From NCBI RefSeq assembly GCF_041248615.1, contig NZ_CP158426.1: 64,000 bases of DNA. The stretch is one strand, 5' to 3'. How positions within the stretch are numbered: the first letter of the stretch is position 1; each line of letters begins with the position of its first letter. Shown here in pieces: positions 15,665 to 40,500 of this stretch. The notes below the pieces were generated by a model. That model ran no database searches. It was not told the DNA's origin and saw only the letters and a program-made list of their open reading frames with translations. This stretch comes from Escherichia coli (GTDB taxonomy: Bacteria > Pseudomonadota > Gammaproteobacteria > Enterobacterales > Enterobacteriaceae). The translations under genes and the position numbers were made by a program.

Positions 15665-16564
15665 TTAACGCAACAATGGGCAATCTGGTGGTAATCGACA
15701 ACGCAACGCCGCCGGAAGTATTTCAATATGAAAGTTTTGTCCGCTCAACGGTTCGCCATCAAGATTAAAAGTGATTTCGTGTGGGGCTTGTATATCAAAC
15801 CACGACGAAGCGCCTTCGATAATATTCGGGTTATCTTCGTCAGATTTTAATGTTGATACGAGAGCCGGAAGAATTTCATCGCCGGTAAAAATGCGCAGTT
15901 GCAGCAAGCCATCGTTAATTAACGCGTTCGGGCACAATTGCTGACCGCCACCGGCCTGACGCCCGTTACCAATACCAATGACCAGGGCGTCACCTTGCCA
16001 GTGAAAGTTTTCACCGCGGATCTCACAACGGTCCGGTTGCAGAGTATCCATGCGCATTAAGCCATGAATGATGTAAGAGACGCCACCCAGCGCGGCTTTT
16101 AATTTTTCCGGCGTTTCTGTGGTAATACGCGTCCCAAATCCGCCTGTCGCCATATTAATAAAACAGGTTTGTTTGTTGACCTGCGCCATATCTATCGCAA
16201 TGGCGTCACCGGCAATTGCCAGTTTCAGCGCCTTATCCAGTGCCTCAGGAATCCTTACACTGGTGGCAAAATCATTGGCGGTTCCTAATGGCAAAATTCC
16301 TAGCGCGGGTATGTCATCCCCCTCACACTGAATCAACGCCGTAGAAACTTCATTAATGGTGCCATCGCCACCACCGGCAATCACCGTTGCGACGCCCAAC
16401 TTCCGGGCCTCCTCTACATATCGTGCGGCATCGCCTTTCTCCCAGGTGACCCGCACATGGATCGTCATTCCTTCCTCACGCAACAGCATAATTGCTTCGC
16501 GCAAGGGTAGATTGTCAGTGCTTTTGCCATTAAGAATCAGTAAGCTGGCGGGAATTTCTGCCAT
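15665..16564 (-). CDS. yegS: Lipid kinase, diacylglycerol-kinase catalytic-domain family
   Basis: 299 aa; GGDGT motif ([13 protein letters not shown]) of the DAGK_cat fold; recalled YegS. Confidence 0.85.
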
Positions 16565-16978
16565 GATCGTATGTGCCTTTATGATTGGTCTGTAGATAGT
16601 GTAGAGCAGAAAAGAAAAGGTGGAGTCAGAACAGGATGAAAGTCGGAGGATAAAAAGTCAGTTCAAGTATGGGGGATTCAGTGGTTACCACCAGGAGCTT
16701 GCAATGGGGACAGCGAATACTAACGGCAGCCACCGATAAATTTCAAAAAAGAGCATATACCTAATATTCAACTAAACAGTGGCATCTTCAATATACTATT
16801 AAAAATATATTAACCCCCCCATGGGGTTACCCGGAAGGGCATCCGTGTATGTAATTCCTACTTATGTAGGAAATGTTGTACAGAACATTTATTATAATCC
16901 TATTCAATTATAATAATCATGCCATTATTATATTTAAACACCAGAGCGTGTCGTTGGTATTTAATGGGGGAAGGTGAG

Positions 16979-17296
16979 ATGAAAAAGATAGCTGCTATAT
17001 CATTAATTAGTATTTTTCTTATGTCTGGTTGTGCTGTGCATAATGATGAGACAAGTATCGGTAAATTTGGTCTTGCATATAAAAGTAATATTCAGCGTAA
17101 ACTCGATAACCAATACTACACCGAAGCCGAAGCTTCTTTAGCCAGGGGCAGAATATCTGGTGCAGAAAATATAGTAAAAAATGATGCAGCTCATTTCTGT
17201 GTTACTCAGGGCAAAAAAATGCAGATAGTTGACCTGAAGACAGAAGGTGCAGGATTACATGGCGTCGCTCGTCTGACATTCAAATGTGGAGAGTGA
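16979..17296 (+). CDS. yegR: Small putative lipoprotein (lipobox LMSGC)
   Basis: ORF 16919..17296 trimmed to MKKIAAISLISIFLMSGCAVHND... (105 aa). Confidence 0.7.
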   Translation: MKKIAAISLISIFLMSGCAVHNDETSIGKFGLAYKSNIQRKLDNQYYTEAEASLARGRISGAENIVKNDAAHFCVTQGKKMQIVDLKTEGAGLHGVARLTFKCGE

Positions 17297-17453
17297 GAAT
17301 ATTTTTGGTAAGCGTCAAACATGCGCGTTCTGGTTGTGCTTAGCCGGAACCTGTGCGAGCACGATGCCGTTACGTGAAAGGCATCGTGCTATGAAGAGAG
17401 ATTCTATCGATGTGGTCAATGGAAGACGGTGACCAGGGATAGGGCTTATGCAT

Positions 17454-17480
17454 AAAAAATAAGCCCGTGTAAGGGAGATT
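17454..17480. other. 27-bp phage P2 attachment-site core (AAAAAATAAGCCCGTGTAAGGGAGATT) overlapping the cyaR 3' end; apparently unoccupied
   Basis: Exact 27-mer present in the sequence; identification as the P2 att core is from memory of the literature. Confidence 0.5.
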
Positions 17481-17540
17481 ACACAGGCTAAGGAGGTGGT
17501 TCCTGGTACAGCTAGCATTTTATGGGTTATGTTTTTCAGC
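17454..17540 (-). ncRNA. cyaR: CyaR (RyeE) CRP-dependent Hfq-binding sRNA
   Basis: Reverse complement equals GCTGAAAAACATAACCCATAAAATGCTAGCTGTACCAGGAACCACCTCCTTAGCCTGTGTAATCTCCCTTACACGGGCTTATTTTTT, including terminator hairpin and U-tail; possible TCACA CRP half-site upstream on the minus strand. Confidence 0.85.
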
Positions 17541-17624
17541 GAAACGGATGATAACCTTAATAAATGCAGCTGTATGTGATCGGTTTCTAAGAATTTTCCA
17601 TCCGGGAAAAATAATCGAAATTAA

Positions 17625-18986
17625 TCACTTACCGTGGGGGTTACGCGTGGTTTCCCCGGAGAAATTACGCATCAGCAGCGCGTAATTTAGCTCAAGATCC
17701 TGCGGCACCGGGATCCACACAGTATAACCATCGCCCGGTGCGACCGGCATTGCTTCGCCTTTGGCGTTTTCCATGTGCTCAAGGGTAAAGTTAATGTTCC
17801 CTTGCGGCGTCATCAGCTCAAGGCTGTCGCCAACGGAGAATTTATTTTTCACCGCTACCGCCGCGAGGTCGCCCTTGCGCTCACTGGTAAACTCACCAAC
17901 AAACTGCTGGCGGTCAGAAACTGAATAACCGTATTCGTAGTTCTGATAATCGTCGTGAGTATGACGACGCAGGAAACCTTCGGTATAGCCACGATGCGCC
18001 AGACCTTCCAGGGTTTCCAGCAGGCTGGTATCGAATGGTTTTCCCGCAGCTGCGTCATCGATAGCTTTACGGTAAACCTGCGCGGTGCGTGCGCAATAGT
18101 AGAAAGATTTGGTACGGCCTTCGATTTTCAGCGAATGCACGCCCATTTTGGTCAGGCGTTCAACATGGGCGATGGCGCGCAGATCTTTCGAGTTCATGAT
18201 GTAAGTGCCGTGCTCATCTTCAAACGCGGTCATATACTCGCCCGGACGCTGGGCTTCTTCGATCATAAACACTTTGTCGGTTGGTGCGCCGATCCCCAGC
18301 GTCGGTTCAACGTTTTGCACCGGAATCGGTTCGTACTTGTGTACGATGTTGCCGACGTCATCTTCTTTCCCTTCCTGGACGTTATACTCCCAGCGGCAGG
18401 CGTTGGTGCAGGTGCCCTGGTTCGGGTCGCGCTTGTTGATATAGCCAGAGAGCAGGCAGCGACCGGAGTAGGCCATGCACAGCGCGCCGTGAACGAAGAT
18501 TTCGATCTCCATATCTGGCACCTGATTGCGGATCTCTTCAATCTCTTCCAGTGACAGTTCGCGAGAGAGGATCACGCGGGTCAGACCCATTTGCTGCCAG
18601 AATTTCACCGTCGCCCAGTTCACGGCGTTAGCCTGTACTGAGAGATGGATCGGCATTTCAGGGAAGTGCTCGCGCACCAGCATAATCAGCCCTGGATCAG
18701 ACATAATCAGCGCATCCGGCCCCATTTCCACCACCGGTTTCAGGTCACGGATAAAGGTTTTCAGCTTGGCGTTGTGCGGTGCAATGTTGACCACGACATA
18801 AAACTTTTTCCCCAGCGCGTGGGCTTCATTGATGCCGAGCTGAAGATTTTCGTGGTTAAATTCGTTGTTGCGCACACGCAGGGAGTAACGCGGCTGGCCC
18901 GCATAAACAGCATCTGCGCCATAAGCGAAAGCGTAACGCATATTTTTCAGCGTTCCCGCCGGGGAAAGGAGTTCCGGTTTAAACAT
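17625..18986 (-). CDS. yegQ: Peptidase U32-family protein (family implicated in tRNA hydroxylation)
   Basis: 453 aa MFKPELLSPAGTLKNMRYAFAYGADAVYAGQPRYSLR...; characteristic U32 N-terminus. Confidence 0.85.
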   Translation of the reverse strand: MFKPELLSPAGTLKNMRYAFAYGADAVYAGQPRYSLRVRNNEFNHENLQLGINEAHALGKKFYVVVNIAPHNAKLKTFIRDLKPVVEMGPDALIMSDPGLIMLVREHFPEMPIHLSVQANAVNWATVKFWQQMGLTRVILSRELSLEEIEEIRNQVPDMEIEIFVHGALCMAYSGRCLLSGYINKRDPNQGTCTNACRWEYNVQEGKEDDVGNIVHKYEPIPVQNVEPTLGIGAPTDKVFMIEEAQRPGEYMTAFEDEHGTYIMNSKDLRAIAHVERLTKMGVHSLKIEGRTKSFYYCARTAQVYRKAIDDAAAGKPFDTSLLETLEGLAHRGYTEGFLRRHTHDDYQNYEYGYSVSDRQQFVGEFTSERKGDLAAVAVKNKFSVGDSLELMTPQGNINFTLEHMENAKGEAMPVAPGDGYTVWIPVPQDLELNYALLMRNFSGETTRNPHGK

Positions 18987-23180: not shown

Positions 23181-26100
23181 TTACTCGGTTACCGTTTGTT
23201 TAGGTTTACGCGAAAAACGCAGCCGCAGACGGTCGAAAAAGAGATACACCACCGGCGTGGTATACAGCGTCAGAAGCTGGCTCATTACCAGACCGCCGAC
23301 AATGGTGATCCCCAGGGGTTGGCGCAGCTCCGAGCCGTCACCGCCCGACAACACCAGCGGCAGCGCGCCAAACAGCGCCGCCAGGGTAGTCATCATAATC
23401 GGGCGAAAACGCAGCAGACAGGCCTGGAAAATAGCTTCCTGCGGCGTCAGGTTACCGTGCCGTTGGGCTTCAAGCGCAAAATCGACCATCATGATGGCGT
23501 TTTTCTTTACGATGCCGATTAATAGCATGATCCCTATCAGGGCGATTAGGCTGAACGGGGCATTGAACAGCTCCAGCGCCAGCAGCGCTCCAACGCCCGC
23601 CGAGGGCAGAGTGGAGAGAATCGTCAGCGGATGTACGTAACTCTCGTAAAGGATACCCAGCACGATATACACCGTGGCGATGGCGGCGATAATCAGGATC
23701 ACCTGCGAGTTCATCGTCTCCTGGAACACCTGCGCCGTGCCGGCAAAACTACCGCGCACCGTCGAAGGCACACCAAGCTGGGTCATTGCGCGATCGATCG
23801 CCGCACTGGCGTCCGAGAGCGATTTCCCGGTCGGCAGGTTGAACGAGATGGTCGAGGCTGCCGATAATCCCTGATGATTCACCGATAGTGGGGCATTCGC
23901 CGGTTGCCATTTAGCGAAATACGACAGCGGGATCGCTTTTCCTTCGTTATTGATAACGAACATTTTTTCCAGCGCGCTGATGTCCTGGGTATAACGCGGA
24001 TCCACTTCCATCACCACTTTGTACTGGTTCATTGGCTGATAAATGGTCGAGATTTGCCGCTGACCGAAGGCGTTATTTAACAGGCTGTTGGCGGCCTGTA
24101 CGTCGATTCCCAGCCGTGCCATGGTGTCGCGATCGTAAACCAGATTCATCTCCGCGCCGTTATCCTGCTGATCGGAGTTCACGTCCGCCAGTTCCGGCAA
24201 CGTCGCCAGTTTTTTGCGGATTTTCGGCTCCCATTCGCGCAGTGCCGCCAGGTCGTCGGATAACAACGTGTACTGGTAGCTGGCGTTCGACTGACGCCCA
24301 CCAACGCGAATATCCTGTACCGCCATCAGGAACAGATTCGCCCCCGGTTCTTTCGCCAGTTTTACGCGCAGACGGTCGATAATTTGCTGCGCCGTTTCGC
24401 TGCGTTCGTCGCGTGGCTTGAGGGTGATAAACATCATCCCACTGTTCACCCGCGAACCGCCGGTAAAGCCGGTGACATTATCCACCGCCGGATCGTCACG
24501 GATAATTTTCATAAAATCCTGCAACTTACCGCGCATCGCCTGAAACGAAATACTCTGATCCGCCTGTATCCCGCCCATCAACACGCCGGTGTCCTGCTCC
24601 GGGAAGAAGGTTTTCGGGATCGAGATATATAGCCAGATATTCAGCGCAATGGTGCCAAGCAGCACCACGCCCACCAGACGGGTATGATTGAGCACCCATT
24701 TCAGCGACTTGCCATAGCCTTGTTGCAGGGCTACCAACATGCGACCAAAACCACGCAGTCGCTTTTGCTCGCGCGGCTTGCTGGCTTTCAGCATCCAGCC
24801 ACACATCATCGGCGTTAGCGTCAGGGAAACCAGCAACGAAATACCAATGGCGACAGAAAGCGTCACGGCAAACTCGCGTAACAGTCGGCCCGGCAATCCG
24901 CCCATCAACAGCAGCGGCAGGAACACCGCCACCAGTGACAGACTCATCGACAGCACCGTAAAACCGACTTCGCGAGTACCTTGCAGTGCGGCTTGCAACG
25001 GTTTCATTCCCGCTTCCAGATGACGTGCAATGTTTTCCAGCACCACGATGGCGTCATCCACCACGAAACCAGTAGCAATGGTGAGCGCCATTAACGAAAG
25101 ATTATTGAGACTGAAACCGCACAGGTACATCGCCGCAAACGTACCAATCAGCGAAACCGGCACCGCAACGGCGGGAATAATAGTGGCGCGACCCGAGCGC
25201 AGGAATAAAAAGACCACCAGAATGACCAGCGCCACCGAGATAATCAGCGTTTGCTCGACTTCCTCCAGCGAGGCGCGAATAGTGGGGGAGCGATCCTGGG
25301 CAATTTGCAGATCAATCGCCGCCGGAATGGTCTCCTGCAACTCCGGTAATTTTGCCCGGATGCTGTCAACCGTCTGGATTATATTGGCTTCCGGCAGCTT
25401 GCGGATCATCAGCAAAATAGCCGGTTTGGCGTTGGTCATCCCGGCGTTACGTACATCTTGTACAGAGTCGGTCACCGTCGCCACATCGCCCAGACGAACC
25501 GCGCCGCCGTTGTTGTAATGAATAATCAACGGCTGATATTCAGCGGCGGTTTTCAGTTCATCGTTAGTCTGGATCTGCCAGCGGTGAGTATCATCTTCCA
25601 GCGCCCCCTGCGGTTTACGCACGTTGGCATTGCTGATGGCGGTGCGCACATCGTCCAGCGACACGCCCTGATTAAACAGCGCCTGCGGATTCAGCCCGAC
25701 GCGTACGGCGGGCAGTGAGCTGCCGCCGACATCGACATCACCAACACCGTCGATTTGCGAAATCGTCGGAGCCAGCTGCGTCGAGGCGAAATCGTACAGT
25801 TCACCCTGCGAATAAGTATCGGATGTCAGCGTGAGGATCATTATTGGCGCATCCGACGGGTTCGCTTTGCGATAGGTCGGACGGCTTGGCATCCCGCTGG
25901 GCAGCAAACTTTGCGCGGCGTTGATCGCCGCTTGCACATCGCGCGCTGCGCCGTTGATATCGCGGTCAAAATCAAACTGCAAAATAATGCGCGTGCTGCC
26001 GAGCGAACTGCTGGAGGTCATTTCACTGACCCCGGCAATGCGCCCAAGTGAGCGCTCCAGCGGCGTGGCAACGGAAGACGCCATTGTTTCTGGTGACGCA

Positions 26101-37591: not shown

Positions 37592-40500
37592 TCAGTTAAT
37601 CGCGAAATAACTGCTATTCACCAGCAAATCCAGCGGTTGGGCATCGGCAATCACATCGCCATAAATCAGATCGACGCCGATGCCAGAAAGCGTATCCATC
37701 ACCAGGGGTAAAACTACTGGCCCGGCGATGGTCTTCATCCCGAGCCGCTGAGCGTGCCCCTGAATGATCGTAATCAGCATCTCATCCATCAAATTTCCCT
37801 GCACGTTGGCGCATAACTCACCATCAAGTAGCAGGTAATCTGCCATATTCGCTTTCAGCGAGTTGAAGATTTGCAGATCGCGGCCCACCTGACTGAATAC
37901 GATCCGACATCCCGCCAGCCGCAGTTTTTGCACGTTTTCTGCGTGATCTAAAATCGCGTCTGCCGGAATAATCAGATGTAATAACCGTGGTGGTAGAGGG
38001 CTATTTTCCAGCTGCTCAATTAGTTCATTCACCAGCGTGGCGCTACTCAAACCGGCAACGGAAAGCGGGAGGGCGATGCTTATACCTTTACTGGCAACCG
38101 CTTTGGCGGCCTGCTGGAAAAAATCGTGGAATACCCGTCGGTCAAGAGCATGGCTAAGTGCCGGATCGCTGAAGCTACGACGAAATGTTTGTTCATCAAT
38201 AATCTCGCCTTCGCAACTCCAGAGCTTAAGTGAAATCAGCCACAAATTACGCGCTTTCGGGATCCGCGGCGAAGCGACACCGTGGGCGATCATCATCAAC
38301 TGATTCTCTTTAATCATCCGCCACTGTTCATCAAGCGACATCGCCGCCCGTTCGCTATGTGCGGTAGCTTGCTGCGGTTCGTAAATCGTCACCCGGCCCC
38401 GGCCACCATTTTTGGAGGCATAACAGGCGATATCAGCCTGCGACATCACTTCAGCCGCCTGATGATTGTTGTCATCAATCAAGGTAATCCCGGCACTGGC
38501 ACCTACCCGATGTACACGTCCTTCCCAGATAAAGTGATAGTCATTCACGGCGCTGATAATGCGTGTAGCGATAAAACGCGCACTTTCGACATTACAATCT
38601 GGCAGCAGCAGACCAAATTCATCGCCACCGAGTCGCGCCAGCACGTCGCTGGAGCGCAGCATACTCAGCATCAACGACGCCAGTTCGCGCAGTAAAGCAT
38701 CGCCAGCGGCGTGCCCGGCGCTGTCATTCACCGCTTTAAAGCGATCAAGATCGATAAACACCAGTGCATGTCGCTGATGTGTACTGTTTACCGTTTGCAG
38801 CAGGATACGCAGTTGCTTCTCAAAACTGGCGCGATTGGCGAGATGCGTCAGTGCATCATGGGAGGCGCTGTAGCTCAGCTGGCGCAGCATTTTGCGTGAT
38901 TCGGTGACGTCCTGAATCACCAGAACCGAGCCTATATTGCTGCCGTCCAGAGTACTTAACGGCGTAATACTGTAATGCACGTCGTAGCTGCCGCCGCTCC
39001 GGCAGTGCAACACCACATCTTGTTCAATCGCGGAACGTGAGGTGTCGGCACTGTAAATGTTCTCCATTAATGGTCCGTTGTCGCCAAAAGTAATATGCAA
39101 CACCGTCAGGAGCGGAACACCTAATGCTTCTTCCTGCGTCCAGCCGCTCATCTTCTCCGCCACCGGATTCATAAAGGTAATTTTCATCGCCATATCAATA
39201 CAGACCACGGCTTCGCCGATGGAATCCAGCGTAATGTGCAGGCGCTCTTTTTCCTGAAACAATGCCTCGTTAAGCTGTTTCACTTCGGTCATATCCATAT
39301 TAATGCCGAGCAGGCGTTCGACTTCGCCTTCTTTATTCAGTACCCGGTTAGCGAGGGCGCGGATATGGCGAATGCCGTCTTTCACGGTAATGCGAAATTC
39401 CAGTTTAAAGGGAGAGCGTGATTGCAATGAATCGCGAATCACTTTTTCGGCGTGCTGGCGATCTTCCGGCAGCACGCACTCGTACCACACCTGCCAGTTC
39501 GGTTTGATATGCGGAGGAATTTCATACAGCTCGAACATCCGCTTATCCCAGCTAAAAATATTCGGCTTAAGCTCCCACTCCCAGATGCCAATTCCGCCCG
39601 CTTCGTTAGCCAGCGTGATGCGCTCCATCAGTTGCTGGTTCACCTGTTCGGTGCGTTTTAGCTCGTTAATGTCTTCAATCTGAGCGATAAAATAGAGCGG
39701 CGTACCATCGGTGTGGCGCACCAGTGAGACGGCAAGCAACGCCCAGACAACATCGCCATTGCGGTTGTAGTAGCGTTTTTCCATTGAATAGGTGTTTATT
39801 TCACCGCTGATCAGCTTTTCAACCTGTTGCAGATCTTTATTGAGATCCTCCGGCCAGGTCAGTTGCTGAAAGGTGAGTCCGCGCAGTTCTTCCTGACTGT
39901 AACCGAGAAACTGGCAGAGCGCTTTGTTGGATTGCAGCCATTGCCCCTCGGTGCCCACTAATGCCATGCCGATGGCGGAATATTCCATCGCGTTCCGAAA
40001 GCGGGTTTCGCTTTCGGAAATGTGTTTGCGTTCCGCACGAAAGGCATACATCACCATGGTCATGATGTTGGCGGGCAGCAGGATCAGCAAAAACGGTAGC
40101 CACGGCATATGGCTCATCAGGTATGTACGCGGCGTAGCAAGCAGGGAGGGATCCGCGGCCATCATCAGTGACACCATCATCACCGTGGTAAGGAAGATCA
40201 AAAAGGCTTCCATTCGTGGCAGGCGCACGGCGCTCCACATCAACAGCACAATAATGAAAGTAAAAGGCCACGGCAGATACAGCATCGAAAGCCAGCTTAA
40301 CGTCAGTGTGATGGCTAACGTGAGCAGCGACTCAAAAAGCAACCGTGGGTTGCGATGGCGCAGCAGATAGTGTGGTTTAAATAACAATCCCAGCGGCACT
40401 AGTGCCAGTGCGCCGATGGATTCTGAAAGTACCCATATCAAAAATGCCCTGAGAGGATCGTCTCCGGGCGTCAGCAGGGCAACCAGAACACCCCCCAACA

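Follow-up and report, generated by a model that had tools for sequence, protein, structure and literature searches.

In Escherichia coli, transcripts terminated by Rho have 3' ends that are marked by stable stem-loops lacking a U-tract, and these stem-loops shield the ends from PNPase and RNase II (Dar & Sorek 2018, PMC6061677). Inverted repeats with perfect 11-bp arms are some 20-25 fold over-represented in the non-coding DNA of E. coli, an excess credited to template switching (Lavi et al. 2018, PMC5941160), a process able to make a perfect stem in one event (Monttinen & Loytynoja 2022, PMC8794818).

Here we describe an inverted repeat whose perfect 11-bp arms lie 11 nt apart (17358-17368 and 17380-17390), located downstream of yegR in a 64-kb stretch of E. 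coli DNA, the whole of which is called the window below. Like the stem-loops of the class described in PMC6061677, this palindrome is a stable stem-loop (~-21 kcal/mol) in a 3' tail, with no uridine-rich stretch after it, and like the repeats of PMC5941160 it has perfect 11-bp arms in non-coding DNA and is found as the same repeat in orthologous regions. Most likely it is a young, single-copy hairpin, specific to E. coli sensu stricto, in the decaying non-coding tail of yegR.

Position and folding of the palindrome

The palindrome consists of a left arm, AGCACGATGCC (17358-17368), a spacer that forms the loop, GTTACGTGAAA (17369-17379), and a right arm, GGCATCGTGCT (17380-17390), which is the exact reverse complement of the left one, and no strand is assigned to any of the three. 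The perfect 11-bp repeat reported in an earlier note on this DNA is present, at a position 3 nt higher than the 17355-17387 given there. Its setting between yegR and cyaR, beside the P2 att core, agrees with the coordinates, the palindrome starting 61 nt past the yegR stop codon and ending 63 nt before the att core. Upstream are yegS (15665-16564, minus strand) and yegR (16979-17296, plus strand, stop codon TGA at 17294-17296), the latter encoding a lipoprotein-like protein of 105 aa (Pfam PF27694, YegR) and called from the ORF list, the RefSeq annotation of identical DNA and Pfam. On the other side of cyaR lies yegQ/trhP (17625-18986, minus strand), named from annotation.

Seven of the 11 bp of the stem are G-C pairs, and a weaker extension of the palindrome gives 14-nt arms with 93% complementarity and a 5-nt loop. 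The predicted RNA fold reaches -20.8 kcal/mol on the plus strand (z = -4.3 relative to shuffles) and -19.3 kcal/mol on the minus strand (z = -5.7). The K-12 palindrome folds with the same energy of -20.8 kcal/mol, against -14.3 kcal/mol for the phylogroup B2 version, in which the loop-proximal pairs are U.G and C.A and the stability is thereby lowered. The entire 171-nt yegR tail folds with a z of -4.6. The stability of the palindrome and its placement in a 160-nt intergenic tail are suggestive, and only suggestive, of something beyond chance.

Directly before the palindrome, a first hairpin of the yegR tail is predicted on the plus strand (17322-17357, GCGCGTTCTGGTTG-TGCT-TAGCCGGAAC..GTGCG), with a fold of -18.2 kcal/mol (z = -2.4) that includes G.U pairs functional on the plus strand only. 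Among 18 haplotypes no compensatory change was found in this hairpin 1, and one of its pairs is C.A in 10 of the 18. A scan of positions 16500-18000 with the covariance models of Rfam 15 (E <= 10) returned cyaR as the sole match, placing the palindrome in no family. The ORFs that overlap the palindrome (48 aa on the plus strand, 67 aa on the minus strand) have no family matches, and a coding function was rejected; the frame of the 48-aa ORF is moreover shifted in K-12 by a difference in the T-run past the yegR stop codon (17301-17306), which is T5 in the window and T6 in K-12 and most other strains examined.

Transcript 3' ends and a candidate effect on yegR mRNA

The 15 nt following the stem are ATGAAGAGAGATTCT on the plus strand and CGCACAGGTTCCGGC on the minus strand, with a T-run on neither. 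Because no U-tract follows it on either strand, the palindrome is not a classic intrinsic terminator, in agreement with the earlier note. It does resemble intrinsic terminators, such as those of P2 ogr and of cyaR (70 nt away), in being a G+C-rich perfect stem directly 3' of a gene, and it occupies the place of the P2 ogr terminator relative to the P arm. Unlike them, it has a loop of 11 nt in the minimum-free-energy structure, against approximately 3-8 nt for an intrinsic terminator, a loop of 5 nt being possible only with the mismatched extension, and it was missed by the terminator scan, which reports just the cyaR terminator and one hairpin upstream of yegR.

Any yegR transcript that reads through would fold the palindrome, since the latter starts 61 nt past the stop codon and no terminator lies between. 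In the mechanism that we propose, the yegR transcript running beyond its stop codon would form the 11-bp stem-loop of ~-21 kcal/mol, without a U-tract; this stem-loop would act as a block to 3'-to-5' exonucleases (PNPase, RNase II), and their stalling would both set and stabilise the 3' end of the yegR mRNA. Such a passive exonuclease-blocking hairpin is, in our analysis, the likeliest effect of the palindrome, with a tentative probability of about 0.45. Transcription through the palindrome and the blocking of exonucleases are the two steps that we infer here. Among the three suggestions of the earlier note, which had named an RNA stability element, a protein-binding palindrome and a recombination scar, the first appears the most plausible.

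Four observations bear against a protective hairpin, as covariation, excess conservation, a rut-like downstream stretch and a K-12 Term-seq 3' end were each found to be nil. The K-12 Term-seq table (PMC7815308 supplement) holds 0 3' ends between cyaR (2167199 +) and gatD (2171800 -), which may simply be due to a low expression of yegR. This result is also in agreement with a reading in which the palindrome has no effect whatsoever and is a chance or template-switch product in non-functional, rarely transcribed DNA, as is the lack of a phenotype of the yegR knockout in chemostats (PMC3708739). We consider this reading somewhat unlikely: any transcript that contains the palindrome forms the hairpin, at 61 nt past the stop codon and with no terminator between.

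The minus strand and cyaR

The small RNA gene cyaR (ryeE) lies on the minus strand at 17457-17542 (Rfam RF00112, 100.7 bits, E = 1.4e-20), and the terminator scan places its intrinsic terminator at 17462-17489 on the same strand. For the CyaR terminator, a read-through of 41% has been measured (PMC9765468), and the palindrome might act on the minus strand, as a protective hairpin or as a pause element in CyaR read-through linked to Rho-dependent termination. On this strand, the stretch of 66 nt that separates the palindrome from the cyaR 3' end (17391-17456) contains 21 C and 8 G (C/G 2.6), and C/G is 1.5 in the 100 nt after the palindrome. With a hairpin of -19.3 kcal/mol (z = -5.7), these figures speak for a role on the minus strand. 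In K-12 and in every locI lysogen, however, prophage DNA lies between the palindrome and cyaR, and the palindrome is nevertheless unchanged there; three arm substitutions (C>T) break the pairing on the minus strand, the palindrome has no U-tract, and no experimental 3' end is known. We therefore hold a minus-strand role to be improbable. Independently of the palindrome, the C-rich, G-poor stretch at 17391-17456 is rut-like on the minus strand and bears on the 41% read-through of CyaR.

Distribution of the palindrome in E. coli and its relatives

The 45-nt palindrome segment was found in 5414 of 5426 complete E. coli genomes, with a median of 1 and a maximum of 2 places per genome among the 5414, and the 191-nt tail in 5346 genomes with an identity of 90-100%. 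This retention stands against a palindrome without any effect, though shared ancestry alone may explain it. In the 64-kb window, no second copy within 3 mismatches was found, and this single copy in the window and in the E. coli genomes rules out a repeat family of the REP/BIME type.

The arms are unchanged in strain KE55, a P2 lysogen at this site, in the K-12 remnant, where ogrK-yegZ lies between the palindrome and cyaR, and in ~100 IMG/VR prophage contigs that carry the yegR flank. The earlier note had proposed to compare conservation with and without a prophage at the site, and occupancy leaves the arms unaltered, the empty-site B2 strains showing a slight difference in two loop-proximal pairs. 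Strain E308 is without the palindrome as the result of a deletion that runs from hairpin 1 into a P2-like baseplate gene. At its junction (L009, 2555-2700), the 3' arm of hairpin 1, ending in gtgcgtag, is joined to the middle of the baseplate J gene, and the deleted DNA comprises the left portion of the prophage together with attL and the palindrome.

The palindrome is also absent from L011, a species-level sister Escherichia lineage with flanking genes of 86-95% identity. L011 is collinear with E. coli up to the left palindrome edge (cctgtgcga) and continues with a different, non-hairpin sequence. Judged from these collinear flanks, the absence of the palindrome from L011 points to a probably recent origin, and it is likewise what a palindrome without effect would allow. 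Intermediate Escherichia lineages were sought via YegR protein clusters, which returned mostly error-prone E. coli assemblies.

Sequence variation of the arms

Variation was followed in 95 loci retrieved by a flank anchor, a set that is unbiased as to the palindrome. Of these, 87 retain the outer 8 bp on either side, and the two commonest haplotypes have perfect arms. When 30 good-quality haplotypes are compared, variable sites make up 5 of the 22 in the arms, against 16 of the 57 non-arm sites, so that the arms vary about as much as the flanks; also variable are 4 of the 11 sites of the loop, which reads GATAAGTGAAA in K-12 and B2 and AATAAGTGAAA in other strains. In these good-quality haplotypes, the variable positions are 3 (C>T) and 10 (C>T, C>A) in the left arm, and 1 (G>A), 9 (G>A) and 10 (C>T) in the right arm; left arm position 9 (G>A) and right arm position 6 (C>T) differ solely in one noisy assembly (L132).

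The observed arm changes are single transitions, leading to G.U or C.A, and one transversion. In 18 distinct haplotypes, changes on both sides were found in 0 of 11 pairs, and all measures of covariation were at or below those of the shuffle controls. Since the substitutions compatible with wobble pairing number 3 on the plus strand and 2 on the minus strand, the strand is not inferable from them. Selection on the stem is not detectable, the shallow diversity of E. coli giving low power. That neither covariation nor excess conservation was detected counts on the side of a palindrome with no effect.

A fossil P2 arm beside the palindrome

To the right of the palindrome, the plus strand carries a fossil of the P arm of P2 attP, the arm-type site of Int (TCGATGTGGTCAATGGAAGACGGTGACCAG, 17407-17436), which aligns to positions 24293-24320 of P2 (AF063097). 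With reference to the arm-site consensus tgTGGaCa (PMC3448106), the first arm-type repeat, TGTGGTCA (17411-17418), is intact and the second is degenerate. The local alignment score of 17407-17453 to the P2 P arm is 20, against 6.4 +/- 1.3 for shuffled sequences (0 of 500 shuffles). Between the P arm and the core, a shortened remnant of the P2 IHF-site region (17437-17453, plus strand) has 16 nt missing relative to P2; some E. coli haplotypes have a longer IHF region of roughly P2 length, as seen in the one (h5) that was aligned to P2. The 27-bp att core of P2 (attB locI), AAAAAATAAGCCCGTGTAAGGGAGATT, follows at 17454-17480; it has no strand, overlaps the cyaR terminator and is identical to the annotated P2 attP core (24356-24382), and it marks the start of the P2 prophage in roughly 100 IMG/VR prophage contigs as well as in strain KE55. 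An 8-bp inverted repeat, GGGCTTAT (17442-17449) and ATAAGCCC (17459-17466), flanks an A-run at the left edge of the core; this repeat is absent from P2 attP at the same position.

The 'empty' P2 attB (locI) is therefore, on its yegR side, an eroded or fossil attR, its flank there being a degraded P arm of P2. The 'empty' P2 locI attB of E. coli is accordingly not naive bacterial DNA. In K-12 the same decay is seen for a second time, and repeated cycles of integration and erosion are documented at the cyaR site. In lysogens, the degraded P arm makes attL resemble a partial attP.

The sister lineage offers a parallel. At 3576-3740 of L011, unrelated sequence replaces the palindrome, and after it come another, better preserved P2-like arm, in which the arm-type repeats have diverged, and a full-length IHF region. 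This arm implies that the site holds, in L011, a prophage relic that either is independent or has decayed in a different way. An apparent similarity of L011 to the 3' end of ogr was not significant.

The palindrome itself could be a part of such a relic, that is, of the right end of an ancient P2-like prophage in which an ogr-type terminator or other element preceded the P arm and the core. The P2 ogr terminator ends ~5 nt before the Int P arm, and the palindrome, likewise oriented, has its end 16 nt ahead of the P-arm fossil; the collinearity of E. coli and L011 ends exactly at the left palindrome edge, where L011 goes on with its own P2-like arm relic, and yegR is AT-rich and found in a different genomic context in other genera. 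Sequence comparison with phages goes the other way. The palindrome with its spacer scores 10 against the P2 ogr-terminator region, versus 7.6 +/- 1.2 for shuffles (39 of 500), which is not significant, and the T-run of a terminator is missing. A blastn search of 50,697 phage records gave two matches, both with host flank wrongly included in the phage records. The palindrome scan of IMG/VR returned ~100 contigs. Roughly nine-tenths of these are locI lysogens with yegR in the contig, and they make up all of the contigs with the palindrome in this context; 10 others hold unrelated hairpins in other phages. In a flank-anchored scan of IMG/VR, the host-type arm variant was never met in a phage attP context. 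A relic of the prophage end is consequently an unlikely source of the palindrome. The scar of past recombination suggested in the earlier note is thus real for 17407-17453, the degraded P arm, and probably does not extend to the palindrome, which is without significant similarity to P2 and unchanged across occupancy contexts.

A role at the level of DNA, as a double-stranded site for a dimeric protein or as a cruciform for recombination at the att locus, has in its favor the perfect dyad symmetry and the proximity to att, and only these. Arms of 11 bp set 11 bp apart are atypical for transcription-factor operators, and a single-copy palindrome belongs to no regulon-like motif family. The palindrome matches none of the annotated Int, IHF, Cox or core sites of P2, the Int, IHF and Cox sites all lying elsewhere. 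Strand exchange takes place in the core, 63 nt past the palindrome, which is identical in the attB and attL contexts, and the sole nearby deletion ends in hairpin 1, outside the palindrome. A DNA-level role is accordingly very improbable, and the protein-binding palindrome of the earlier note, with the P2 Int, IHF and Cox sites elsewhere and a single copy, finds no support. More generally, this locus is a warning that structures near att sites need not be functional.

The yegR tail and the origin of the palindrome

The DNA on the left of the palindrome is decaying as well. In B2 strains, 176 nt are inserted right past the yegR stop codon, between 17296 and ~17302 of the window (L007, 2325-2500; also L008 and L127), and this insert is what decay has left of the 5' part of a DUF4156-like lipoprotein gene (score 30 versus 10.4 +/- 1.5). 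Other enterobacterial genera carry the gene in intact form after yegR (L014, 3322-3642; also L015), and its relic was lost in the other E. coli, including this window. The palindrome therefore sits between the remnant of the lost second lipoprotein gene and the fossil P2 attR arm. Decay on both sides, in the form of the 176-nt B2 pseudogene relic and the degraded P arm, is one more point for a palindrome with no effect.

In other genera (L013, L014, L015), the pair formed by yegR and the lipoprotein gene is located elsewhere, with no cyaR, yegS or yegQ nearby, and is followed by a terminator-like hairpin (GTGTGCC..GGCACAC). This context, together with the low G+C content of yegR (32-43%), suggests that the yegR cassette may have been acquired horizontally at the cyaR att hotspot. 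A status of yegR as phage cargo was rejected, as the tblastn and PHROGs matches trace solely to host flank in prophage predictions.

The number of such repeats expected by chance was estimated by first-order Markov simulations of the 64-kb window (arms >= 11 bp, loops of 3-20 nt). A mean of 0.57 perfect inverted repeats is expected and 2 are seen; since 0.57 is expected, one such repeat per 64 kb is not beyond chance, which is again compatible with a palindrome that does nothing. The only other perfect 11-bp inverted repeat of the window, TTCCGAAAGCG-GGTTT-CGCTTTCGGAA (39993-40019), is followed by no T-run on the plus strand.

For the 47-nt palindrome segment, no significant similarity was found to the outgroup gene, its 3' UTR, L011 or P2. 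A homology to the second gene of the outgroups or to its 3' UTR, suggested by MAFFT, was discarded, the local scores being no better than those of shuffles. The perfect arms would have arisen, or have been perfected, by template switching during replication, and their origin would be neutral; a template switch is, in our opinion, the most plausible source of the arms.

A more complete history can be proposed. An ancient P2-like prophage would have carried yegR and the DUF4156-like gene as cargo beside attP, and all of the AT-rich DNA up to the att core, yegR included, would be the fossil of its right end; the palindrome, made de novo in this decaying DNA of E. coli by one-step template switching, would now serve as a stabiliser of the yegR 3' end. 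We regard this combined scenario as decidedly unlikely. If true, it would provide a dated example of a functional RNA stem made from junk at a recurrent phage integration site.

Comparison with known systems

With respect to phage P2 attP/attR (the Int P arm, the IHF site and the 27-bp core), homologous DNA adjoins the palindrome on its right, at 17407-17480, whereas the palindrome itself matches no annotated P2 binding site and was not found in P2-like phages. Like REP/BIME and other repeated extragenic palindromes, it is intergenic, imperfectly conserved and downstream of a gene; these elements have many dispersed copies per genome, whereas the palindrome is single-copy.

The closest match in terms of origin is provided by the template-switch repeats of PMC5941160 and PMC8794818. 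The palindrome is perfect in most E. coli and absent in the sister lineage, as a one-step origin predicts. It differs from these repeats in that no template switch could be reconstructed here, the outgroups having no significant alignment to the palindrome.

In terms of effect, the closest match is the PMC6061677 class, with some differences. Rut sites lie immediately downstream of the stem-loops of that class, whereas the plus-strand RNA downstream of the palindrome is G-rich and C-poor, with a C/G of 0.47 over 100 nt and no C-rich, rut-like stretch, and the 11-nt loop of the palindrome is large. Taken together, these comparisons suggest that the palindrome is most likely an ordinary lineage-specific hairpin, of which the context is the more instructive part. 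If the hairpin defines the 3' end of the yegR mRNA, it would be one more stem-loop without a U-tract in a well-described class.
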